Below, piece after piece: positions 1,516-59,562 of a DNA stretch of 64,000 nucleotides. Under the pieces are notes generated by a model. It saw only the letters and a list, made by a program, of their open reading frames with translations. It was not told where the DNA came from and did not search any database. The DNA comes from Acidobacteriota bacterium (lineage in GTDB: Bacteria > Acidobacteriota > UBA6911 > RPQK01 > JAJDTT01). The translations under genes and the position numbers were made by a program. How positions within the stretch are numbered: the stretch's first letter is position 1; every line of letters starts with the position of its first letter. The stretch is taken from contig OZ242374.1 of assembly GCA_965209055.1 (NCBI GenBank), positions 1,664,001 through 1,728,000 of the forward strand, in the 5' to 3' direction.

Positions 1516-3830
1516 GTCCGGTATCCGGGCAAAGTGAAATCGATCCGGTCTGCGGGATGAAGGTGAGTCCCGGCCCCGGCGTTCCCAACGTCTCCCACGG
1601 TGGGAAGACGTACTATTTTTGCTGCCCGAATTGCGCCGAACTGTTCCGGTCCGATCCGGAACTCGCCCTTGCGCACCACGAAGGAGACCGTCCCCAGGTC
1701 CATGCGCATGACCACGGGGACGCAGGCCGCTACATCTGCCCCATGTGTCCCGGCGTCGAGTCGCCGGTGCCGGGGTCGTGTCCTTCATGCGGCATGGCCT
1801 TGCAGCCGTACGGAGCAACTGCGGAAGACGGCGGAGAATTGCGTGAGATGACCCGGCGTTTTCGCTGGAGTCTCGGTTTCACGGGTCCCCTCTTTCTGCT
1901 GTCCATGTTGGATATGGCGTCCGGACAGCCGATCTCCCGGATCCTGACTCCGGATCTCCGCCAGTGGCTCGAGCTGCTCCTGGCGACTCCCGTGGTGATT
2001 TGGGGCGGGCTTCCCTTCTGGCAGAGGGCCTGGACCTCCATTTGGAATCGCAGCCTCAACATGTTCACCCTGATTGCCCTGGGTACGGGCGCGGCCTACC
2101 TTTACAGCTTGGCGGCCGTCGGTTTTCCCAGCCTTTTCCCGGAGGCCTATCGGGACGTCCACGGTCACGTCGGCGTCTATTTCGAAGCCGCCGCCGTCAT
2201 TACGGTCCTGGTGCTTCTGGGGCAGGTTCTCGAACTCAGGGCGACGGCGCGTACCGGCAGGGCCGTCCGGTCCCTCCTGGAACTGTCTCCGCCCACTGCC
2301 CGGAAGATCGCCGCCGGTGGCGATGAAGAAGTTCCCTTGGCGGACGTGAAGCCGGGCGACCGGCTGCGAGTGCGTCCGGGGGACAAGATTCCGGTGGACG
2401 GCCGGGTGCTGGAAGGAGAGAGCAGCGTCGACGAGTCCATGATCAGCGGCGAGTCCATTCCCGTCTTGAAGCGTCCCGGGGATGCCGTGACAGGCGGGAC
2501 GTCGAACGGGTCCGGCACGCTGGTCATGGAGGCCCGGCGGGTCGGGAGCGAAACCCTCCTGGCGCGCATCGTCCGGATGGTCACCGAGGCCCAACGCTCC
2601 CGGGCCCCGGTCCACCGCCTGGTCGACCGCGTTGCGGCGTGGTTCGTCCCCGCGGTCATCGTCGTGGCGGTGGCGGCGGCGCTGACGTGGGGATTGATGG
2701 GGCCCGAACCCAGATGGGCCAATGCGCTCGTCACGGCGGCGGCGGTCTTGCTGATCGCGTGCCCCTGCGCCCTCGGTCTGGCGACTCCCATGTCCATCAT
2801 GGTGGGGGTGGGGGAGGGCGCCCGATCGGGAGTCCTGATTCGGGACGCCGAGTCGCTGGAAGTCCTGGAGCGGGTCGACACCCTCATGGTCGACAAGACG
2901 GGCACTCTCACCGAAGGACGTCCGCGGCTTGAAGCCGTGAATCCGGCCGGAGGATGGAATCGCCGGGAGATCCTGAGGCTCGCCGCCAGCTTGGAGCAGG
3001 GGAGCGAGCATCCCCTGGCCGAGGCCGTGGTCGCCGGAGCGCGCCGGGAAGGACTGGATTTGGCTTCGGTGGAACGTTTCGATGCCGTGGCGGGACAGGG
3101 GGTCCGGGGAAGGGTGGAAGGCCGGGAAGTGGCGGTGGGCAGCCGGCGGTTCCTGGCGGATCTTTCGATCCGGAATGGCGGCCTGGAGCGGCGGGCGGAA
3201 GAGTTGCGCCTGCGCGGGATGACGGCCTTCTTCGTGGCCGTCGATGGCCGGGCCTGCGGCGTTCTGGGCGTGGGAGACCCCCTCAAGCCGTCCGCCCGGG
3301 AGGCTCTGGCGCAACTGAGGCTTGAGGGCGTACGCGTCGTCATGGTCACCGGGGACGGCCGGACCACGGCCGACGCCGTGGCGAGAGAGCTGGGGATCGA
3401 ACGGGTGCGTTCGGAGATGCTGCCCGACGAGAAGGCGAGTCTGATCCGTGGATACCAGGAGGCAGGCCGGATCGTGGCCATGGCGGGAGATGGCGTCAAC
3501 GATGCGCCGGCCCTGGCGCTGGCCCAAGTGGGCATCGCCATGGGCACGGGATCCGACGTGGCCCTCCAAAGTGCCGGGGTAACGCTGTTGCGGGGGGATC
3601 TGAACGGCATCCTCAAAGCGCTCCGATTGAGCCGGGCGACCCTGGCCAACATTCGCCAAAATCTGTTTTTCGCGTTTCTTTACAACATGTTGGGTGTGCC
3701 GGTCGCGGCCGGGGTCCTGTATCCCCTCTGGGGAATCACGATGAATCCCATGCTGGCCGCCGCGGCCATGGCTCTCAGCTCTCTCTCGGTGATCGCCAAC
3801 GCCTTGAGATTGCGCCGGGTTCGGCTCTGA
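1512..3830 (+). CDS. copA: Cu(I)/Ag(I)-translocating P1B-type ATPase with YHS and heavy-metal-binding domains
   Basis: [47 protein letters not shown] and MxxSS motifs. Confidence 0.9.
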
Positions 3831-3862
3831 ACGACGTCAGCGCCGGCGGCGAGTCGAGTACA

Positions 3863-4624
3863 ATGGAGCCCGTGAAGACGAGCCGTTGGTTGTTGGCGCC
3901 CCTGCTCCTCCTGCTGAGCAGTCCATCCCAGGCCCAGGTCGAGTCGGACACGCTGCTGGAGAGTCTGAAGCCCCAGGGCTACGTCAGCGACTATGCGGGC
4001 GTGATGAACGCCAATCTGAGGCGTTCGTTGGAGGGCCGGCTCAGGGAATTGGAGCAAAAGACGACGGCTCAGATCGCAGTGGTCGCTCTCCGGTCTCTGA
4101 AGGGCGGAGAGATCCGGGACTTCGCCAATCGGCTCTTCGAGCGTTGGGGAGTGGGGAGGAAAGGCAAGGACAACGGCGTTCTGATGCTGGCCTCGCTGGA
4201 GGATCGCAAGATCTGGGTCGAGGTCGGTTACGGCTTGGAGGGAATCCTTCCGGACGCGAGGGTGGGACGTATTCTGGATCAGGCGGTGTTGCCGGAATTC
4301 CGCCACGGCCGCCATGGCGGAGGATTGGCGCGGGGCGCGCTCACCATTGCCGGGGTGATCGCACAGGATTCGGGAGTCACTCTCAGTGGGGCCGCCGTCC
4401 CGCGGGATTCCCGGCGAAGTCGCCGTCCGGGCGCCGGCAATCTGCTCTATCTCCTGTTTCTGCTGTTCCTTTTCCTCCGGCGGCCCCTGTTGGGAATGTT
4501 CCTGCCGCTGGGGATGGGTGCCGGGTTCCCGCGCGGCGGTTATGGCGGCGGCTTTTCGGGAGGGGGCTTCGGCGGCTTCGGCGGCGGGCTTTCCGGAGGA
4601 GGAGGCGCCGGCAGGAGCTGGTAG
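3863..4624 (+). CDS. TPM domain-containing protein (YgcG-like)
   Basis: signal peptide, WGVGRKGKDNGVL, EVGYGLEGILPD, Gly-rich tail ending GGGGAGRSW. Confidence 0.9.
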   Translation: MEPVKTSRWLLAPLLLLLSSPSQAQVESDTLLESLKPQGYVSDYAGVMNANLRRSLEGRLRELEQKTTAQIAVVALRSLKGGEIRDFANRLFERWGVGRKGKDNGVLMLASLEDRKIWVEVGYGLEGILPDARVGRILDQAVLPEFRHGRHGGGLARGALTIAGVIAQDSGVTLSGAAVPRDSRRSRRPGAGNLLYLLFLLFLFLRRPLLGMFLPLGMGAGFPRGGYGGGFSGGGFGGFGGGLSGGGGAGRSW

Positions 4625-6961: not shown

Positions 6962-9937
6962 ATGAGAGACCGGTCTCCCGCTGCGCGTCCCGGGTCATCT
7001 TCCACCCTGCTGGCGGCCTTGGTCTTGGCGGCCATCTCGGGCATCCAGGGATTCAGTCGACAACCGGCCCCTGAACCCAAATCTTCTTCGGGCGAAGGAG
7101 AGCCGCTGCTCTCCGAGATCCGGCAACTCACGTTCGAAGGCCGGCGTTCCGGAGAAGGATATTTCAGTCCGGACGGCTCCCTGTTCATCTTCCAGAGCGA
7201 GCGCGAGGAGGAAAACCCGTTCTTCCAGATCTACTTGATGGACCTGGTCCGGAGAGAGGTGAGCCGGCTTTCTCCGGGCCACGGCAAGACCACCTGCGGC
7301 TGGATTCATCCGTCGGGCGGCCAGGTCCTCTTCGCTTCGACCCACCATGATCCCGAATCCGGCCGGAAGCAACGGGAGGAATTCGAACGCCGGGCTTCGG
7401 GACGGACCCGCCGGTACACGTGGGACTTCGATCCCGAATATGAGATCTACGGGCTCTCGCTGGAAACGAAGACCTTTCGCAACCTCACCAACAAGTTGGG
7501 ATACGACGCCGAAGCCTCCTGGTCTCCGGAAGGCGGACGGATCGTGTTCGCCTCGAACCGGTTGGCCTACGAAGGCGGTCTGACTCCGGAGCAGGTGAAG
7601 TCGCGGGACGGGGACCCTTCGTCCTTCCTGGATCTCTACTCCATGAATTCGGACGGAACCGACGTTCTCCGGCTGACCGCCTCGCCGGGATATGACGGCG
7701 GTCCCTTCTTCAGCCCCTCCGGCCGGACGATCTGCTGGCGGAGGTTCACCGAGGACGGAATGGTGGCCGAGATCTTCCTGATGGACGCGGACGGAGGCCG
7801 CCAGCGGCCTGTGACGCGACTGGGGAAGATGTCCTGGGCGCCCTTTTTCCATCCTTCCGGAGACTACCTGGTCTTCACCACCAACCTTCATGGCCTGGAC
7901 AACTTCGAGCTCTACCTGGTGGCCGCCGAGGGTCGCTCCGAACCGGTCCGCATCACCCGGACCGCCGGATTCGATGGTCTGCCCGTCTTCGCGCCGGACG
8001 GCAAGACGCTGACCTGGACCTCCAACCGGACTCCCGGGAAGACCTCCCAGATATTCCTGGCCGGCTGGGACGACCGTGAGGCGAGACGCCTGTTGGGACT
8101 CTCCGCGCCGGAAGGGCAGGTGGACGCCGATCCCGGACCGGAGACTCCGAGCGCGGCCCGGATCCGCGATCAGGACCTTCGCCGCCACGTGAACCGCCTG
8201 GCTTCCGAGGAGATGGAGGGGCGAATGACCGGGACCCGGGGAGAGCTTCTGGCCACCGGGTACGCCGCTTCGGTCCTGTCTCGCCTGGGATTGGAGCCGG
8301 CTGGAGACGACGGATCCTACTTCCAGTCGTTCCCCTTCACGGCGGGAGTCTCCCTGGGCGCCGGGAACCGGTTGGAGATCGTGAGTGGAGGCGAGAAGAA
8401 GCCGTTGCGCGTGGACCACGACTGGAGGCCGTTGTCCTTCTCGGCCGCGGGATCTTTCGGAGCCTCGCCGGTGGTCTTCGCCGGGTATGGAATCGTGGCG
8501 CCGGAATTGGAGGACAACGCCGGTTACGATTCGTACGCTCACCTGGACGTGGCCGGCAAGTGGGTCATGGTGTTGCGCTATTACCCGGAAGAGGTGTCTC
8601 CCCAACGGCGGCGGCATCTGGCCCGCTATGGAAGCCTCCGCTACAAGGCCATGCAGGCCCTGGACCGGGGGGCCAAGGGACTCCTCATCGCCAGCGGCCC
8701 CGCTTCCAAGGTCCGGCGGGAGCTGATCCCGTTGAGGCTGGACGGGTCGGTCACGGACGGGCGCCTTCCCGTCATCTCCCTCACCGACCGGGCCGCCGGA
8801 ATTCTCCTGGAGTCCGACGGCCGGACGCTGCAAGAGCTTCAGTTGGGACTGGATTCCGGGGAACTGCAGATGGGGTTTGTGCTGCCCGGTGTCGAGATGG
8901 CTTCCAACGTCGCTCTGAACACGGAAGAGAGGACGGGCCGCAACGTTCTGGGGTTGCTGCAGGCGGAGCCGGGCAAGGCCGCGCACGGAGTGCTGGTGGT
9001 GGGAGCCCACGTGGACCATTTGGGCTCGGGGGCCACCGCTTCGTCGCTGGCCCGGTCAGACCAGGAGGGTGGAATCCACTACGGGGCCGACGACAACGCG
9101 TCCGGGGTCGCCGCCGTTCTGGAGATGGCGGAGCATCTCGTGGACCTCCGGGACCAGGGGGGCCTTCCGCCGGGACGAGACGTGCTGTTCGCGCTCTGGT
9201 CCGGGGAGGAGCTGGGTCTGCTGGGCTCGAACCATTTCATGAAGAGCTATGGCTCGGACCAGGAGGCTGGGTCCGAAAACGACCTGTTGGCCTATCTGAA
9301 TCTGGACATGGTGGGGCGGTTGAGAAGTTCCCTGGTGGTGCAGGGCGTCGGTTCGAGTTCCGTCTGGCCTGCGGCCATCGAGCGGGCCAATCTGAATCTC
9401 GGCCTGCCCATCGTCATGCAGCCCGAGAGCCATCTGCCCACCGATGCCACCTCCTTCTACGTCAAACAGGTCCCGATCCTGAGTCTCTTCACCGGTTCCC
9501 ACGAGGACTACCACACGCCCGGAGACCGGCCCGAAAAACTCAACTACCCGGGGACCCGGAAGATTGCGTCATTTCTGAGCCGGATTGCCGTCCAGCTCCT
9601 GGAGAACCCCGATCGTCCCGATTACAAGGAGATGACCGATCCCAGGAGGCGAGGGGCCAGGACCGGACTGAGAGCCTACCTGGGTACGATCCCCGATTAC
9701 GCTCCGGGTGAGAATGAGGGGCTCAGCCTCTCGGGGGTTGCGCCCGGAGGGCCCGCCGAAAAGGCGGGGGTCCGGGCGGGAGATGTGGTCGTGCGCCTGG
9801 CCGATCGCGAGATCAGGGATATCTACGACTACACCTACGCCATCGATTTTCTGGAGATCGGCTCTCCGACCGATATTGTCGTCCTGCGAGAGGGAGAAAG
9901 GATCACCTTGACCGTCGTCCCGGCTTCCAGGGAATGA
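6962..9937 (+). CDS. secreted M28 metallopeptidase with PD40 (TolB-like) repeats, PA and PDZ domains
   Basis: FSPDG repeats, GAHVDHLG, GADDNASG, GEELGLLGS, HEDYHTP, C-terminal LGTIPDY PDZ. Confidence 0.9.
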   Translation: MRDRSPAARPGSSSTLLAALVLAAISGIQGFSRQPAPEPKSSSGEGEPLLSEIRQLTFEGRRSGEGYFSPDGSLFIFQSEREEENPFFQIYLMDLVRREVSRLSPGHGKTTCGWIHPSGGQVLFASTHHDPESGRKQREEFERRASGRTRRYTWDFDPEYEIYGLSLETKTFRNLTNKLGYDAEASWSPEGGRIVFASNRLAYEGGLTPEQVKSRDGDPSSFLDLYSMNSDGTDVLRLTASPGYDGGPFFSPSGRTICWRRFTEDGMVAEIFLMDADGGRQRPVTRLGKMSWAPFFHPSGDYLVFTTNLHGLDNFELYLVAAEGRSEPVRITRTAGFDGLPVFAPDGKTLTWTSNRTPGKTSQIFLAGWDDREARRLLGLSAPEGQVDADPGPETPSAARIRDQDLRRHVNRLASEEMEGRMTGTRGELLATGYAASVLSRLGLEPAGDDGSYFQSFPFTAGVSLGAGNRLEIVSGGEKKPLRVDHDWRPLSFSAAGSFGASPVVFAGYGIVAPELEDNAGYDSYAHLDVAGKWVMVLRYYPEEVSPQRRRHLARYGSLRYKAMQALDRGAKGLLIASGPASKVRRELIPLRLDGSVTDGRLPVISLTDRAAGILLESDGRTLQELQLGLDSGELQMGFVLPGVEMASNVALNTEERTGRNVLGLLQAEPGKAAHGVLVVGAHVDHLGSGATASSLARSDQEGGIHYGADDNASGVAAVLEMAEHLVDLRDQGGLPPGRDVLFALWSGEELGLLGSNHFMKSYGSDQEAGSENDLLAYLNLDMVGRLRSSLVVQGVGSSSVWPAAIERANLNLGLPIVMQPESHLPTDATSFYVKQVPILSLFTGSHEDYHTPGDRPEKLNYPGTRKIASFLSRIAVQLLENPDRPDYKEMTDPRRRGARTGLRAYLGTIPDYAPGENEGLSLSGVAPGGPAEKAGVRAGDVVVRLADREIRDIYDYTYAIDFLEIGSPTDIVVLREGERITLTVVPASRE

Positions 9938-10059
9938 GGGAAGAAGAGGATGCGGCGTCCGCTTTTTCCACGGTCTGCCAGGTCTCGGAACCTCCCGCTA
10001 CGGGTCCCGGTTCAGTTTTTTCTTAGGAAATCCATGAACTTGTGTTATGATCGCTGACC

Positions 10060-10356
10060 GTGCGGATGAGGGGCATCGGTCGAAACACCGAGACGCGTCA
10101 AAAGGTAGATTTCAGGTCCGAGCGAAACTTAGCTGTTGCCATCTTGAGACAGGCGTGGCACGAAGCCGTCATCGACCTGCGGATCGTCAAGGAAAACTCC
10201 CGCAAAGACTATCGCCTGCTAAAAAAGAAGGCCATCGAGTGGATCGTCAGCGACGAAGACGGCTTCCCCTATTGGTGCAAGCTGGCTGACGCCGACCACA
10301 GCGCCATCCGACAGCGCCTGCAGGAGCGTCTGAACCAACAGTACAACTGTCAGTAG
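10060..10356 (+). CDS. small hypothetical protein
   Basis: 98-aa ORF with protein-like composition filling an intergenic gap. Confidence 0.6.
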   Translation: MRMRGIGRNTETRQKVDFRSERNLAVAILRQAWHEAVIDLRIVKENSRKDYRLLKKKAIEWIVSDEDGFPYWCKLADADHSAIRQRLQERLNQQYNCQ

Positions 10357-10526
10357 GCGCTTTCAGAGCTGTCGACGGAATCGCGGACCGGCTGCCAACT
10401 CCAAGAACACGTCTATTCCAGGAGAGGGAAAATACCTGTCCCCCTCTTCATCGCTCACCCTGCGTCTTGCCCCCGCCACCATCGTGCCTTGCCAATACCT
10501 CTTCATTCACTCCTCGTCCGTCCTCG

Positions 10527-52926: not shown

Positions 52927-54543
52927 TTATTCGGAAGAATCAGGACACCCTTGTGGAGGATCAGATGCTGAAACGTTTACTGGATCAGTGTCTTTCCAAT
53001 ACGTCACCTTTGCTTCATAGAACTCAGAATAGTTCGGATGTTCAGGCAATTGGAGTTTGTAACCTCTAGGGTGTTTCCAAATGTCATCAGATGGCACCCG
53101 AATAGACTTCTTGTACCAAATAGGTGATCCAGCCCAAGGTCGTTGATAAGTCACTTCCACTGGATCTGCTTCTTCCATTCGTCGGTGATATGCACTGAGA
53201 TTTGGGTTGTCACTACTTGTTGAGCCGGAGAAGGAGCCCGAACCTCCTATCCTTTCGTGCAGGTGTAATTTGGCAGCGGCAAGGCATTGGCTTTCACCGT
53301 ATTCGGTAATCCAAAATATCTGAGCACCGGTTACATAATCGATTATTGGAGCATACCGAGAATTTTGGTGCGCTCGTCTTTTTCCCTCGTACGGAGGGGT
53401 AGGATAAATCTCAATCCTCTGCACGGCGGGTAGTTCTCCTGTTCTGTCTCTTCTAAAAGCTCCGACGTGGAGGGCTTCATCCCCGGAGACGTTATCAGGA
53501 GCATGAGTAGGGCCTACTCCACCATTTTGAGACAGGACATCCCACCAACCGCCTGGAGAACAATCATCTGGAGAAACGGGAGACGGCCCATCCCAAAAAC
53601 GACGCCAACGCAAAGCGTGCCAATCAGCGTTTCCTTGTTCTCGAGGAAACAACTCCAAAACCATTAAGGTTCGAGGCAGGTAGTCTAAATCGTTGTCTAC
53701 TTCAAGCAGATAGTTGGTGAACCTACCAACCACACGACGATTGACTCGATAGAATTCGGAACCCACATTGATCCCAAACTCATAGACTGGTATTACGATT
53801 TCATCAGTCAGGGTACGGACACACTCATGGGTCTCCAAAACTTTGGGATTTAGATGGTCGTATTCTTTAACGGGAGCCAAAGATGCTTCTACACGACTGC
53901 CACGACTGCATTGAGTCTCATCTAGGATAAAACGGTGTATGGAAGATGCTCCTGGACTCAATCCATAATCTCGTATTGGAAGGACGGTTTTGTCTCCGAC
54001 AGGAATGAAAGGCGTCGCAAAGTAACTGCCTGGGTTCTCAATTGGATCGTACTCGGTGATCCTCCATTGTTGGACGCCTTGACAGTCGTTTCCTTTGGTA
54101 TTCGCTTGGAGGTAAGAAAGATGGATAATCTGGCCGTCATGATGATCTTGGTCAAGATCAACACTTAAGTTACATTGCTCATGTATCATATGAGGGATGT
54201 CTCCGTAAGGAGTTGAGAAGACCCCTCCCTTCGCCCCTGTAAGAAACGCAAACGCAATCAAGACCCTCACAACCTTTTTCGATGTGGAGTTCTTTGATTC
54301 GTTCCGGTCCTTAATCCACAAGATAATAGCAATGAGCAAGGCAAAGGGCAGAGCAGTAAATACGAGTGTTGCTAAGATTGCAGCAATACCTAATCCGCTC
54401 AGTGTCAACCCGAGCAGGATAGATCCTAACGATCCGCTGGCGGCAAGTATGACACCACCTGCGATTATAAGAACTGCAACTAACCCGTGTATACCTTCCT
54501 TATTGTTGAGTATCCCTTCGCACATCTCCCGGAAATCTCGCAT
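52927..54543 (-). CDS. 538-aa membrane-anchored hypothetical passenger protein
   Basis: long ORF in low-GC DNA, GAGGAGG RBS, N-terminal TM helices. Confidence 0.75.
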   Translation of the reverse strand: MRDFREMCEGILNNKEGIHGLVAVLIIAGGVILAASGSLGSILLGLTLSGLGIAAILATLVFTALPFALLIAIILWIKDRNESKNSTSKKVVRVLIAFAFLTGAKGGVFSTPYGDIPHMIHEQCNLSVDLDQDHHDGQIIHLSYLQANTKGNDCQGVQQWRITEYDPIENPGSYFATPFIPVGDKTVLPIRDYGLSPGASSIHRFILDETQCSRGSRVEASLAPVKEYDHLNPKVLETHECVRTLTDEIVIPVYEFGINVGSEFYRVNRRVVGRFTNYLLEVDNDLDYLPRTLMVLELFPREQGNADWHALRWRRFWDGPSPVSPDDCSPGGWWDVLSQNGGVGPTHAPDNVSGDEALHVGAFRRDRTGELPAVQRIEIYPTPPYEGKRRAHQNSRYAPIIDYVTGAQIFWITEYGESQCLAAAKLHLHERIGGSGSFSGSTSSDNPNLSAYHRRMEEADPVEVTYQRPWAGSPIWYKKSIRVPSDDIWKHPRGYKLQLPEHPNYSEFYEAKVTYWKDTDPVNVSASDPPQGCPDSSE

Positions 54544-54581
54544 GACCCCTCCTCTCGACTTGGGTAGAATGGTGGGATGGA

Positions 54582-54674
54582 GGCAGGGTGGACGAAGATT
54601 GGATTAAGTCGCCCGACTGAAAATCGGGTAGGGTTGAAAGGCCCTCGCGGGTTCAACACCCGTCCCTGCCACCA
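54582..54674 (+). tRNA. atypical class II tRNA, anticodon GAA (Phe), Ser-type long variable arm
   Basis: GGCAGGG/CCCTGCC-A-CCA; CCCGA-CTGAAAA-TCGGG; V-arm AGGGTT-GAAA-GGCCCT; GCGGG-TTCAACA-CCCGT; TAGAAT at 54565. Confidence 0.85.
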
Positions 54675-54704
54675 TCAAGCATCAATATATGATACTTCCC
54701 ATAT

Positions 54705-54968
54705 TCACAGGGGCCAGGTTGGGAACGGTGGAGGAGTCAGCCAGACACACTCATCATTGAAGATTCTCAATGTCCAGCCGTTTTCCTTCTCGCGGAACTT
54801 GGCATGAGCTCTCAACGCTCCTCGGTTGAGGGATTTCACTTTCCATAGCACCGCAGTCTCTTTCGAGAGTCTGGCCAGGTCGGCCCAGGTGATTGGGCCG
54901 TGGACTGACATGAGGTGATCGAGGAATCGAACGTGGTGTTTGAATTCGTGGGGTGCTTTGTGGGACAT
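54705..54968 (-). CDS. 87-aa hypothetical protein downstream of RNA switch copy 1
   Basis: GTAGGAG SD upstream of ATG (MSHKAPH...). Confidence 0.55.
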   Translation of the reverse strand: MSHKAPHEFKHHVRFLDHLMSVHGPITWADLARLSKETAVLWKVKSLNRGALRAHAKFREKENGWTLRIFNDECVWLTPPPFPTWPL

Positions 54969-54976
54969 CGACGGGT

Positions 54977-55209
54977 CTCCTACGCTGTCCAGGTGGAATC
55001 CACCGTGGACTGTTGTCTGCAATCAGCACCCCAGTGCAGATAGGGAGCCGGGTCATCGCAGACAACGCATAGGAAGTCGGAAGTGCTCTTCCAGTCCCTG
55101 CCTATTCGCCCCGTCCGATTCATGACGTCGCACGGTTTATAATGCCTTTTGTATTTGGCAGGTGACCCGGCACAGGATGCGCCACGGGAAACCTACGGCT
55201 GTCTGCAAT
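54977..55209 (-). ncRNA. unrecognised structured RNA motif, copy 1
   Basis: GCCGGGUCA/UGACCCGGC pseudoknot helix, terminal GCAGACA(G/A)C repeats, GUCAUGA loop, anti-SD. Confidence 0.7.
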
Positions 55210-55313
55210 GCCGATCATAACAGACAGGACTGGAACGCTCAACTGCCGCTACTCTCGGGAACGGCTCCTCCCTACGCGGGGCAGAGCCCGCCATGATCGT
55301 GAGTCCAACAACC

Positions 55314-55553
55314 ACCTCCTACGTTGCCCGAAAAATTAGCAATCAAAACCAAAATGGCGATGCCTCCGAGCGGGTTGTCTACGCCGACGATCCCACGTCT
55401 GCACATTGTGGGAGCCGGGTCATTGCAGACAACACGTAGGAAGTGAAGTTGCTACTTATTTACTCAGCAAGGTCATGACTCCTTGCGATTACGAGCTATT
55501 GCATTCAGTAGCTGACCCGGCACACTTGCGGGAGAACCCTTAGCGTTGTCTAC
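55314..55553 (-). ncRNA. unrecognised structured RNA motif, copy 2
   Basis: same architecture as copy 1 with sequence-divergent but still paired stems. Confidence 0.7.
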
Positions 55554-55666
55554 GGGTGGATCTTACTGGAAGGAGGGCTGGATTGCAAACCCGCCCCACC
55601 CACAAAATTTTTCGAGCACTCGAAATACTTCTGAGGTTTGCAGTACAATACAGGTTACAACGAAGA

Positions 55667-55753
55667 TGGCAGGCGCCCCAGGCAGGATTCGAACCTGCAA
55701 CCTTCGGCTGCGATACCGTTGCTCATCCATCTGAGCTTCTGGGGCGCTTCGCC
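55667..55753 (-). ncRNA. tRNA-Arg-like RNA with degenerate anticodon arm and extended acceptor
   Basis: GCGCCCCAG/CTGGGGCGC, GCTC-AGATGGAT-GAGC, GCAGG-TTCGAAT-CCTGC, loop ATCGCA; TATAAT at 55754-55759. Confidence 0.75.
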
Positions 55754-55864
55754 ATTATAACCTACTCGGAGGGCAGAAAATGCGTCGTGGGAAGAACCGC
55801 AAGCCAGTTGACATTTTAGCCTTGGCAATGCAGAAAGCGCATCAGCAGGTCAGAGACGGGGACC

Positions 55865-56836
55865 TCAATTCTGAGACTCGTCCGACTCATCATCAGCAGT
55901 CAGATCAAGATACATCAGACGACGGCCGACCAGTCCCGCCACGATGTGCTTCATCTGATCAATAGTATCCAGCTCTCGGATATTGTGACGCTTGGCGAAC
56001 TCACTGACGTATCGGTGTAGGTGCTTTTCACTCATCTTGTGGAAAGTGCCCGTGTAGCCGCGTTTTAACATCGACCAAAAGGACTCCATGCCATTCGTGT
56101 GTGCCATGCCTCTGACATACTCGCCTACTGTGTGCTTGACAGATTCCCGTCTATGGCCCATCCAATCGTAGGCTGGATTCTCGTCTGTGTATGATCTCAC
56201 CCACAAGACAGAGTTTTCCAGGATGAACGTGGAAAGTGTTGCCTTGGTTGTATCGGGAACAACCCTAGCCCTGATCTGATTGGTCGGACGATCTTTCATT
56301 CCCACAACTGCGACTTTGCCAACAGACCCTCGACCAGAGAATTGAGCCCGGCGCTTGGCACTCATATTCCGCCTCTTGCCTCCAATGTAAGTCTCGTCAA
56401 TCTCCACCGGCCCGGACAGAGTCTCTGAGTCGTCCTCGGTCCAGGATTGCCGAAGTCGATGAAGCATGAACCACGCTGTGGCTTGTGTCACATCGATGTC
56501 TCGGTGGAGTTTCATTGAGGAGACTCCCTTGAGGTTCGTAATGTAGATGAAGATCGCCAAGGCCCATTTCTGTAACGGGACGTGGGATCTGGCCAAGGTC
56601 GTGCCAGTGCGGACTGAAAAGTAGCGCCGACAGTCAGAACACCAGTAAGGTTGAGGCCGTCGTTTCGGAGTCTCGTTCGTCTTGACGCTGCCGCAATGCC
56701 CACAGCATCGCTCATCGGGCCAGAGTACGGACTCGAACCATTTTTCCGCGGATTCCTCATCCGGGAACATCTTGAAAAGTTGGATCAGTGAGATTCCTTG
56801 TCGGTAAAACTTGCCTGGAGCTTTTGCTTTCTTCAT
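55865..56836 (-). CDS. IS1595 family DDE transposase
   Basis: Zn ribbon CGHC..CSDC, GVSSMKLHRD, VEIDETYIGG, YTDE, HTNGMESFWSMLKRG. Confidence 0.96.
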   Translation of the reverse strand: MKKAKAPGKFYRQGISLIQLFKMFPDEESAEKWFESVLWPDERCCGHCGSVKTNETPKRRPQPYWCSDCRRYFSVRTGTTLARSHVPLQKWALAIFIYITNLKGVSSMKLHRDIDVTQATAWFMLHRLRQSWTEDDSETLSGPVEIDETYIGGKRRNMSAKRRAQFSGRGSVGKVAVVGMKDRPTNQIRARVVPDTTKATLSTFILENSVLWVRSYTDENPAYDWMGHRRESVKHTVGEYVRGMAHTNGMESFWSMLKRGYTGTFHKMSEKHLHRYVSEFAKRHNIRELDTIDQMKHIVAGLVGRRLMYLDLTADDESDESQN

Positions 56837-56950
56837 TGTCTCCCTCTCAATTTCCTGAACATTTTATCACAGGACCCTGACATTTTTCTGTAGTAAGTCC
56901 TTTGTTATGTTTAGTTTACACAGATTGTCGTGAGGGCAGTACAATAAAAC

Positions 56951-57092
56951 ATGATGGCGGAGGGATGGACACAGCGGGGTACGATCCCGCGACCTCCCAG
57001 TTCTAAGTGCCCGTGGTAGGAAAAATTTTGGGCACCAGAGCCGGGTGTTCTGCCAGCATAAAGAACTATGCGGCCTTCGTCTCCGCCATCAT
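56951..57092 (-). ncRNA. tRNA-like RNA with hairpin inserted in anticodon loop and extended acceptor helix
   Basis: GGCCGCA/TGTGTCC, GTTC..GAAC, CCCGG/CTGGG, AGGTC, GCGGG-ATCGTAC-CCCGC; flanking ATGATGGCGGAG/CTCCGCCATCAT; TAGAAT at 57091-57096. Confidence 0.65.
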
Positions 57093-57127
57093 TCTACCAG
57101 ATTTCCAAGGGGAAGGGAAGATGGTGA

Positions 57128-57292
57128 GGCGCAAAGATTCCTGGCTTTCGGCTCTCCCAAGTGGCTTTCTTGTGGCAAGGGCCTGGGCTGGGGTTACATG
57201 CCCTGGAAGATCGCATCAAACTGGGCGCAAAGATTCCTGGCCCGGGCCTGGGGGAACCTGAAGCTGGGCCTAGGCTGGGGTTACGCGCCCTG
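57128..57292 (+). repeat. two tandem copies of a hairpin motif
   Basis: GGCGCAAAGATTCCTGGC...GGGCCT(G/A)GGCTGGGGTTAC..GCCCTG at 57128-57205 and 57223-57292. Confidence 0.7.
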
Positions 57293-57358
57293 TTGACCAT
57301 CGTAGCGGGTTCGATGTCTTTGGTCAATCAGGGGTACCTAGTCAACTGTATAATCCCC

Positions 57359-59562
57359 AATTGAATGACTGGGTGAATCGGGCCCGATGCTACATTCACG
57401 AGCACCAAGTCGGAAGTGATGGAGGAACCGTTGGCGAAATGGGGGAAATGCAAATGCATGTTGTCCTGCGTGCGCATCGGTGGAACCGGAACCACGGGCA
57501 AGGTCGTGAAGATCCGGTTCTGGAAATCCATCTCCAAAGCCACACCGGTGAACAGAGAATCCTCGGGAGCCATGCACCGAACCGATCCCACGAAGTTCCC
57601 CGTATAGGTCTCGGGGAATAATTCATCAATGAACTGGGCCGTCTGGCCGTGTCCAGCCAGCGGGATATCCACGTCGCCACGCAAGTTGTTCCTTTGCGTC
57701 AGTTGGCAACTCACGGTGATCGGATCCTCTCCCCGGTTACGAATCGCCACTCCAGTATTGATTCCTGATTCTTGGCGCCGCACAGGGAAAATCGCGTCCT
57801 GTACGGCTATTCCCGTACCCACCCCGGCGACTCCCATGTCCGAGCTGTCAAAGCGCAGAACTCCCCCGATGGGACCGTCCGCCACAGCCCTTGCCGATCC
57901 CGTGACCAAATCCCCTCGGCCATGGGTCGAGATCGTGAGTTGTCCCAGGGGTTCTATTTCCTTCCGTACGGTCAGGGACCCGTCGGCCCGGATCAAACGA
58001 TCCTCTCCGACATCCACTATGGATGCCGGGTCTATGAGGTTTCCCTCGGCGTCGAAAAAGTAGAGGGCCGGCTGGATGGGAGTGGCTCCAACATTCACGA
58101 ACACCAACTCGGAGCGAATGGACGCCCCGTTGGCAAATTGGGAGAATTCCAAGGAAAGTCCTGCCAGTACAGTCAGCGGCTCGGCAGATCTGATAAACGT
58201 GTAACCAAGACTGCCCCCAAGCTGGAGCGGGAGCTGTGCGATCTCGACGGTGACCGGAGAAGTCGTTCCAGACTGTCGAGCCACCGAATAAACGTCGCTT
58301 GTCTCTCGCCCTGCGGGAATCGTGACGTGGGATGAATCCCCGCGAAGCATGCCGTTGGTTACAATGATCCGCAGACGGATCTCAAAGGGTGCGCCAGTAG
58401 GCACTCTAAGCTGGAATCGGCCTGGAGCCACCCATTCCATAAAAACGTTGATGAGTAGACGATGCGCCGGATTGTTTCTCATCGTGAAAATTTGCATGGA
58501 AGAGAGACCGAAGAAGATGCCATCTGGCAGGCTGGTCAGCCTATTGTTGTCCAGATAGAGAGTTCGTAGTGAGGAAAGACCGGAGAACGCTCCCGCCGGC
58601 AAACTAACCAGTTTATTCCCACTCAGTACAAGCAGTTGCAGTGTAGAAAGTTCAGCGAAGGCTCCTACCGGAAGGGTAGTCAGCGCACTGTCATTCAGGA
58701 GGAGAGTTCGTATTGAGGTGAGGCCGGAGAACGCTCCCGCCGGCAAGCTGGTCAATTCATTCCCGCCCAGATGGAGATGTATCAGCGAGGAGAGGCCGGT
58801 GAAGGCCCCCACCGGCAGGGTGGTCAGCGCATTGTGAGACAGGCGGAGAAGCTTTAGCGAGGAGAGGCCGGTGAAGGCCCCAGCTGACAGGTTCATCAGC
58901 CCGGTCAGCGGCGTGTTGGGAAAGGATGAGTTGGAAGCACTAGCCAGGTTGAGTTCTTGCAGTGAGGAGAGGCCGGTGAAGGTCCCCGCCATCAGCCCGG
59001 TTAGCTTAGTAAATGACAGGTTGAGTTCTTGCAACGAGGGGAGGCCGGTGAAGGCCCCAGCCGGCAGACTGGTCAACTTTGTACTAGACAGATCGAGAGT
59101 TTCCAGTGAGGAGAGCCCGGTGAACACTCCCGCCGGTAGAGTGGTAAGGGGAGTCAGGTTCAAATAGAGCGTTGTCACCGAAGAAAGTCCCGAGAAATCG
59201 CCGACTCTCAACGCTGTCACTGGTGGCGGCGGCCGTCGTTCGCGGCTGGGGTTGTTCCAATCGGGCGAAGAGTAATACCCGCCGTGAAAAAACTCGCCCT
59301 CAATCGCAGCCAGATGAACCTCGGTCACGTCGGTGCAATCATCTATCCCCGACACCAGACTCACGATCTCGTCGCGCACCTCCGGGGTCCTGTCGCAGAC
59401 GGGGACGATCTGAGCTACGACTGGCTCTGACGCGGCCAGCAGGCCCAAGCTCAAGGTGACGGTTAACAGCGAGCTTCTGGATCGCTGCCGGCAACGATGC
59501 AGAATCTTCGAAAAGTGGACTGACATCTGAATGGCTCCTCCAGGTAGACGGTAGCGGCTCAT
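57359..59562 (-). pseudogene. leucine-rich-repeat secreted protein, 5' part (interrupted by the transposon)
   Basis: signal peptide, VCDRTP.VRD.I cap, LTSLPAGAF.GLSSL..L.L..N 24-aa repeats. Confidence 0.92.

Follow-up and report, generated by a model that had tools for sequence, protein, structure and literature searches.

An interrupted, perhaps disabled tRNA gene of an irregular family beside an IS1595-type transposase gene in an Acidobacteriota genome

The tRNA-like element at positions 56966-57075, on the minus strand of the 64,000-nucleotide stretch of Acidobacteriota DNA analysed here (the window), is most likely a tRNA gene of an irregular family and not a part of the insertion sequence next to it, its place beside the transposase gene being a matter of neighbourhood and not of function. 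As for its present state, we favour, with some caution, the view that this particular copy is a disabled member of the family, lying in a region rich in mobile elements.

The tRNA-like body and its enlarged anticodon loop

The element, 110 nt in length, aligns end to end to the Rfam tRNA model RF00005. As placed by this model and by R1, a covariance model of the family discussed below, it comprises an acceptor stem GGCCGCA/UGUGUCC with one C3·U70 mismatch (57075-57069 / 56973-56967), a D-arm GUUC-12 nt-GAAC (57066-57047), an anticodon stem CCCGG/CUGGG (57045-57041 / 57000-56996), a variable loop AGGUC (56995-56991), a T-arm GCGGG-AUCGUAC-CCCGC (56990-56974) and a discriminator A (56966), all on the minus strand. 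An earlier note on this DNA had described a D-arm, an anticodon stem, an AGGUC variable loop and a T-stem in tRNA order on this strand, together with the T-loop AUCGUAC and a longer hairpin in place of the anticodon loop, and all of these are indeed present. The GCCA which the note took for the terminus belongs, on the other hand, to the 3' arm of a flanking inverted repeat and is not a CCA end. The element encodes no CCA, which we had considered as a distinguishing trait and dropped, since only 33 of the 68 ARAGORN calls in the genome encode one. Two further features set the copy apart from a regular tRNA. Namely, the acceptor stem is not fully paired, owing to C3·U70, and the T-loop departs from the consensus U54 U55 C56 R57 A58, which is also that of the Rfam consensus line.

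The Rfam score of 29.3 bits barely passes the gathering score of 29, with E values of 0.051 for the 64-kb window, 0.0032 for 4 kb and 0.00115 for the genome, which is a single contig of 6.08 Mb. R1, on the other hand, gives 54.1 bits (E 3.9e-11) in a full-length alignment that covers model positions 1-115 and includes both flanking arms. The 146-nt stretch that contains the element and its arms folds at -64.5 kcal/mol (z -4.96), and only 1 of 200 shuffles is equally good. On the strength of the Rfam score, the R1 score and the fold relative to shuffles, the tRNA-like features exceed what chance would give. In terms of length, the element stands alone, being the only one of the 59 above-threshold Rfam tRNA matches in the genome that is longer than 93 nt. 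Other Rfam families, tmRNA and YrlA included, gave no match at E<=1 in 54000-58000 except for Plastid-ycf2, whose hits are antisense, weak and far under threshold. Among the contigs of one sample, from which the four runs that contain this DNA all come, the main form shows zero differences across the element. A minor contig agrees over 56829-56964, then leaves and is joined to 57337, but the side in question is a weak one of 22 letters, too weak to call the contig a deletion allele.

The most conspicuous peculiarity of the copy is its anticodon "loop", which has 40 nt (57040-57001) instead of 7. These nucleotides fold into a further helix of 4 bp and 6 bp, so that, outward from the anticodon stem, one meets a 1x1 loop, 4 bp, a 1-nt bulge, 6 bp and a cap in the form of a 17-nt loop. 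Taken alone, the anticodon arm has a folding energy of -21.4 kcal/mol (z -3.92), which is matched by 1 of 200 shuffles. Alignment to five relatives with 7-nt loops delimits a 33-nt insert on the minus strand (CUGGUGCCC...GGGCACU, 57006..57038), with borders that are ambiguous by about 2 nt. The flanks, CU (57040-57039) and UAGAA (57005-57001), add up to a 7-nt loop CUUAGAA with the anticodon UAG, close to the CCUAGAA of one of the relatives (that of genome G010). The insert stacks on the anticodon stem as a hairpin and extends the anticodon helix, and the sequence of the 40-nt loop occurs only once in the whole genome. According to the part of a review that bears on this point (PMC7609411), functional natural tRNAs have anticodon stems of 5-6 bp; the window copy lacks an arm in which a stem of this length carries a 7-nt loop presenting the anticodon. 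A canonical tRNA-Leu(UAG) is present elsewhere in the genome.

A family of irregular tRNAs and its flanking arms

The nearest relative of the element lies at L006:3984-4059, in DNA that is the same as that of genome G005. The Rfam tRNA model gives it 50.6 bits; it has a 7-nt loop CUGAAAA without the insert, and shares with the window copy a TAGAAT box as well as the same leader and trailer arms (ATGGCGGAGGG/CCCTCCGCCAT). Because the insert made MAFFT misalign the window copy with this relative, the covariance model R1 was built from the L006 locus and used instead. Searched against 101 related genomes, it returned six family members in four of them: the L006 copy with the anticodon GAA, one in G010 with UAG (L089:6744-6819), two in G004 with CAG (L088:10275-10350) and GAG (L088:3784-3858), and two in the genome of the window (G000), namely one with GCU at 1817273-1817345 and the interrupted window copy with UAG. 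Those R1 hits below the six that we inspected are ordinary tRNAs, except for an irregular array in locus L073. That array, in a genome of the same order (G030:C278:3252-5889), packs four or more tRNAs of irregular appearance into about 900 nt. In a sample of 151 genomes across the phylum no further member was found, the extra hits being ordinary-looking tRNAs; a DNA search with the window element in 61 genomes found only itself, and two pattern scans of metagenomes gave 0 hits. The unpublished genome G016, which was also covered, yielded only a chance-level 19-nt match, on which none of our conclusions depends. Pfam searches of the ORFs neighbouring the relatives gave no hit for 7 of 8 and no informative family.

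The family is characterized by a 7/5 cloverleaf with a variable loop of 4-5 nt, preceded by its own -10 box, directly after which comes a 5' arm rich in purines and complementary to a 3' trailer rich in pyrimidines. Five of the six members have ordinary 7-nt anticodon loops, and no relative carries the insert. The window copy deviates in other respects too: its T-loop is AUCGUAC where the relatives have UUCGAAG or UCCGAAG, it scores 29.3 bits with Rfam as against 44.7-65.5 bits in the five relatives, and it alone has C·U at pair 3·70 (alignment pair 27/137), where four of the six members have G3·U70 and one has G-C. The structure itself is well maintained. In the six-member alignment, which was fitted to the model and therefore favours the structure, 96.1% of cells are paired and both partners have changed in 19 of the 32 pairs; none of 500 shuffles attains the observed values, and slid controls are 37-49% paired. 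The earlier note would have seen a decayed pseudogene had no homologue kept the pairing and had there been no transcript; the homologues do keep the pairing. In the D-stem, the window copy and its nearest relative differ by two compensatory pairs (alignment pairs 36/51 and 37/50). At positions 54 and 58 of the T-loop the window copy has, judged by eye, A...U where the relatives have U...A, a change that could preserve the 54-58 pair.

Alanyl-tRNA synthetase recognizes its tRNAs mainly by the pair G3·U70. Those four members that have this pair carry Leu (UAG, CAG, GAG) or Phe (GAA) anticodons and, judging from this pair only, would be alanine acceptors that read Leu or Phe codons. Two side observations concern individual members and their surroundings. 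The other member in the genome of the window (G000:C1:1817273-1817345, corresponding to L039 1504-1576, minus strand) scores 65.5 bits with Rfam and combines a short variable loop with the Ser anticodon GCU; seryl-tRNA synthetase normally requires a long arm. Furthermore, the two members in L088 each lie about 55-115 nt upstream of paralogous genes for proteins of about 265 aa, which look as if they had a signal peptide and have no Pfam match, the two units (2937-3869 and 9358-10365) being about 6.5 kb apart.

Around the window copy, leader and trailer form a perfect inverted repeat of 12 bp, ATGATGGCGGAG/CTCCGCCATCAT, on the minus strand. Its 5' arm (57092-57081) overlaps the -10 box with its first two bases, while its 3' arm (56962-56951) begins 3 nt past the discriminator. 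The earlier note had read this pairing as an extension GGCGGAG/CUCCGCC of the acceptor; the stem is real, but it has 12 bp and does not abut the acceptor stem, a gap of 5 nt being left at one end and of 3 nt at the other. With -24.7 kcal/mol, the flank duplex ranks second among the 70 tRNA genes compared in the same genome. Across the six members the helix covaries, 9 of 11 pairs changing on both sides, and its arms vary by member (GGCGGAG, GAGGGCAG or GGGGAAGG). That said, similar leader/trailer stems flank ordinary tRNA genes in other members of the phylum, and the stem is therefore not special to the irregular family.

The -10 box that the note had placed directly upstream is an extended -10-like box TGGTAGAAT on the minus strand (57091..57099), 15 nt before the 5' end of the tRNA and on the same strand as the transposase gene; a consensus promoter scan omitted it for want of a -35 hexamer. 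Many ordinary tRNA genes in the same genome are preceded, at 13-29 nt, by TAnAAT boxes, and the box of the element is the same in kind and spacing. In most family members the 5' arm begins directly after this box or inside it, and part of the arm (in the window copy, much of it) may not be transcribed, given the usual geometry of promoters. On the other side, 4 nt past the 3' arm, lies the 11-mer TATTGTACTGC (56936..56946, minus strand), which occurs identically behind a second irregular tRNA of the window, tRNA B (55640-55650). Read on the plus strand, it is a TACAAT -10-like box directed back at the tRNA, and the consensus scan gives plus-strand promoter-like sites at 56917-56945 and 55620-55649. 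In the region between the promoter of the element and a leucine-rich-repeat gene (57128-57292) we also noted two imperfect direct repeats, about 87-96 nt apart, which contain two copies of the exact 18-mer GGCGCAAAGATTCCTGGC.

The IS1595-type transposase gene and the neighbouring irregular tRNAs

The transposase ORF (55865-56836, minus strand) matches the Pfam family DDE_Tnp_IS1595 with E 2e-35, together with its zinc ribbon, and has its closest homologue in L006, at 79% identity. As far as it is common with L006, the IS1595-family element extends over 55798..56926 on the minus strand, with a gap at 56825-56848. Since the similarity between the window and L006 is confined to 56926-56849 and 56824-55798, the tRNA-like element falls outside the shared IS block. 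The ends of the insertion sequence and its target duplications were not definable, and there are no clear terminal inverted repeats. The transposase gene, moreover, has an extended -10-like box of its own, TGATAAAAT, about 27 nt before its ATG, with a counterpart TGGCATAAT in L006 (by eye). The earlier note had inferred a tRNA mimic or a processing signal that controls the transposase mRNA. Its tRNA-like part is borne out by Rfam and R1, but its regulatory part found no support: the element lies outside the IS block, and the transposase gene has its own -10 box. A candidate role of the insert as an antisense to the 5' region of the transposase gene was rejected, its pairing being no better than that of shuffles (fractions 0.32 and 0.16). 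The L006 copy of the insertion sequence has about 190 extra nt ahead of the transposase start (2316-2506), without an Rfam match. Within them lie a TATAAT box and a stem, GGACGCGG...CCGCGTCC, that closes off about 75 nt.

How close, then, is the tie between the family and IS1595? The note had proposed a covariance search upstream of transposases of this type, and R1 at E<=0.1 finds nothing at 34 other IS1595-family loci. In L006, the family homologue lies not upstream of the transposase gene but about 520 nt downstream, past three other tRNAs; within 14 kb of the two G004 members there is no IS1595, and for the G010 member the distance to one is about 5 kb. Tested more generally, Rfam tRNAs occur in 2 of 20 other IS1595-family loci, each more than 1 kb from the gene, and ARAGORN tRNAs in 3 of 32 such loci, L006 included. 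A synteny search in the genus revealed only multi-copy gene families around the locus. That said, the distance from the transposase stop codon to the first irregular tRNA is 119 nt in the window, 110 nt in a second locus of the same genome (L001) and 120 nt in L006. In our view, the position of the element beside the transposase gene reflects a habit of the genus, in which IS1595-type genes adjoin arrays of irregular tRNAs. The insertion sequence may target such arrays or it may carry them.

In the window, the tRNA that begins 119 nt past the stop codon is tRNA B (55674..55745, minus strand), with an Arg-like body, a 6-nt anticodon loop (AUCGCA) and an Rfam score of 48 bits. It is similar to the tRNA-Arg genes of its own genome, and ARAGORN reports it, as tRNA-?(Arg|Ala)(cg), only when the threshold is relaxed. 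Farther on lies tRNA A (54582..54674, plus strand), with a long variable arm (a class II body), the anticodon GAA and an encoded CCA. Its promoter and leader, GGTAGAATGRTGG, are the same as those of the window element, in the opposite orientation. With its discriminator A, tRNA A sets a Leu- or Ser-type body against the Phe anticodon GAA, and ARAGORN and Rfam differ by 5 nt in where they place its acceptor stem. Between these two tRNAs, at 55043-55560, there are several direct and inverted repeats with a spacing of about 350-400 nt, and we found no convincing ORF in this interval.

Similar arrangements were seen at the other two loci. In L001 (2370-2674, i.e. G000:C1:2737869-2738173), the tRNAs stand 110 nt past a second IS1595-type gene, whose protein is 56% identical; the array consists of two long-arm tRNAs that are Leu-like but have AGA, a Ser anticodon, and of a Gly(GCC)-like tRNA whose anticodon stem contains a bulge. 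In L006 (3581-3853) there are three tandem tRNAs of 73 nt with the Ala anticodons GGC, CGC and AGC, which lack G3·U70 and have a class-II-like D-arm. In the first two of these, the acceptor stem is continued by GAAGGGA/TCCCTTC into a 14-bp helix, and a -10 box lies 7 nt ahead of the 5' end, while in the third the extension is shorter. Finally, ARAGORN reports six tRNA-Leu(UAA) genes in G000:C1 (at 477237, 1991443 and 2524782 and also at 1381642, 2104898 and 3018716), three of which lie in a repeated segment of at least about 380 bp, with conserved flanks and strong leader/trailer pairing.

Competing explanations and what the family may mean

Several explanations other than a disabled gene have to be considered, of which a mere accidental resemblance to a tRNA is the least credible. 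Although the Rfam score lies at the threshold and ARAGORN does not call the element, be it with the intron option on or off, such a resemblance is in practice refuted by the full-length R1 match and by the covariation of the family, and we give it hardly any weight. One could also think of a working tRNA with the anticodon UAG, interrupted by an intervening sequence of 33 nt that would be removed from the transcript. The flanks do restore a 7-nt loop that matches the loop of a relative, and the insert folds on itself, as does the extra anticodon-loop sequence of archaeal tRNA genes with a bulge-helix-bulge and of bacterial tRNA-Leu genes with a group I intron. The likeness does not go further than that. 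No bulge-helix-bulge forms at the borders of the insert in the fold of the 146-nt stretch or in that of the anticodon arm, in agreement with what the note had said of a canonical one; the archaeal-type splicing endonuclease PF01974 is absent from the genome, as judged by a search whose control was positive in four archaea; and neither a group I intron nor another intron family of Rfam matches at the element. Group I introns are, by comparison, much longer than 33 nt. What is more, the C3·U70 mismatch and the odd T-loop would persist once the insert was removed, and no other tRNA gene of the genome has a comparable insert. Hence we regard an interrupted but working tRNA as quite improbable.

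Somewhat less remote, though still unlikely, are two further possibilities. According to one, the RNA is made and does not decode, acting as a functional mimic, that is, as a handle for RNase P/Z, as a decoy for a tRNA-binding enzyme or as a cis element on the transposase transcript, which starts about 130 nt downstream. An intact promoter-like box on the strand of the transposase gene, a perfect leader/trailer stem and folds of the 146-nt stretch and of the anticodon arm that are better than those of shuffles would agree with such a role. Yet it is a single case, with an insert that all relatives lack and with no such element at 34 other IS1595 loci; it has a mismatch in its acceptor stem, the pairing of the insert to the UTR does not exceed that of shuffles, and both its position outside the shared IS block and the transposase gene's own -10 box count against the idea too. 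In one form of it, to which we would assign little probability, the copy would be a non-decoding mimic whose ancestors were tRNAs of alanine identity, reading Leu/Phe codons and moving together with IS1595-type elements. It would, with equally slight probability, have kept its acceptor/T handle for RNase P, the CCA-adding enzyme, a synthetase or EF-Tu, while its anticodon arm, rebuilt into a rod, would no longer let it miscode; and its service, for instance, as a decoy or as a module for processing or stabilizing the transcript of the adjacent transposase gene seems to us no more plausible. The other possibility is that the relevant level is DNA. Namely, the inverted repeat and the mirrored -10-like boxes on both strands may mark a tRNA cassette that moves or recombines, or else the right end of an IS1595-plus-tRNA transposon that has lost its remainder, with the tRNA-like gene as cargo, which we think improbable. 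Here one can point to the 5' arm, which begins inside the -10 box and which, from promoter geometry, may be untranscribed in large part, to the TATTGTACTGC motif behind both tRNA B and the element, to the L006 homologue as the final gene of an array behind a transposase gene, to the stop-to-tRNA spacing of 119, 110 and 120 nt in three elements, and, weakly because of its 22-letter side, to the minor contig, which departs exactly at the 3' end of the tRNA. Nevertheless, the ends of the insertion sequence are undefined and without clear terminal inverted repeats, the leader/trailer stems at ordinary tRNA genes of the phylum fit RNA processing better, and the insert is left unexplained.

We therefore return to the disabled copy of an irregular tRNA gene as our preferred reading. 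Its ancestor would have had the loop CUUAGAA with the anticodon UAG, and a 33-nt hairpin would have been inserted between U33 and the anticodon. A change of G3 to C would have given rise to the C3·U70 mismatch, and changes in the T-loop to AUCGUAC. The anticodon arm would now be a rod of about 15 bp and, being a rod, could not present the anticodon, so that decoding by the window copy itself has probably ceased. With its promoter intact, the copy may still be transcribed, and the loss of a harmful, mis-decoding tRNA may have been favoured. Like tRNA pseudogenes in general, the copy has a score at the threshold, a stem mismatch, a disrupted loop and a single occurrence without a conserved ortholog. 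It should be noted, however, that some features count against a disabled gene. In particular, the -10 box is intact and the 12-bp inverted repeat perfect, as one would not expect of a typical pseudogene, the D-stem has changed by compensatory pairs, the changes in the T-loop could leave the 54-58 pair in place, and the insert forms an orderly hairpin (z -3.92) that does not look like random debris.

Such genes are not without precedent. Mukai et al. (2017, PMC5389517) described irregular, partly inactive tRNAs of Acidobacteria in the vicinity of toxin-antitoxin and transposon genes, among them allo-tRNAs, polycistrons of irregular tRNAs and one pseudogene with disrupted pairs that overlaps a transposon-related ORF. 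Judged by the portions of that article drawn on here, the window element belongs to this known kind: phylum, mismatch between anticodon and likely charging identity, clustering and proximity to mobile elements are all alike. It is, on the other hand, not an allo-tRNA. Allo-tRNAs, as these portions present them, combine a long variable arm and serine elements with acceptor/T stems of the 8/4 or 9/3 type, while the window family has a 7/5 branch with a variable loop of 4-5 nt (5 nt in the window copy) and would be charged through the alanine pair G3·U70; nor do they describe an insert in the anticodon loop. In the passages of a review that concern them (PMC11415595), the tRNAProX of Streptomyces and Kitasatospora appear as natural bacterial tRNAs of dual identity that mistranslate. 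They likewise combine the identity of one amino acid with the anticodon of another, but the identity is that of Pro, the anticodons are those of Ala, Asn and Thr, and the phylum is a different one. A literature search, covering papers apart from their supplements, found no description of the G3·U70 family or of a link between IS1595 and tRNAs.

Taken by itself, the window copy matters little if it is a dead copy. Its significance lies in its company. Namely, one genus of Acidobacteriota has clusters of tRNA genes in which the likely charging identity and the anticodon disagree, be it that the alanine pair accompanies Leu/Phe anticodons, that leucine-like bodies bear a Ser anticodon or that the anticodon loop has 6 nt, and IS1595-type transposase genes precede these clusters at a fixed distance. 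Should the mismatched tRNAs be active, they would act as mobile agents of deliberate mistranslation, and the window copy would show how one of them was silenced, either by the host or by the element itself.
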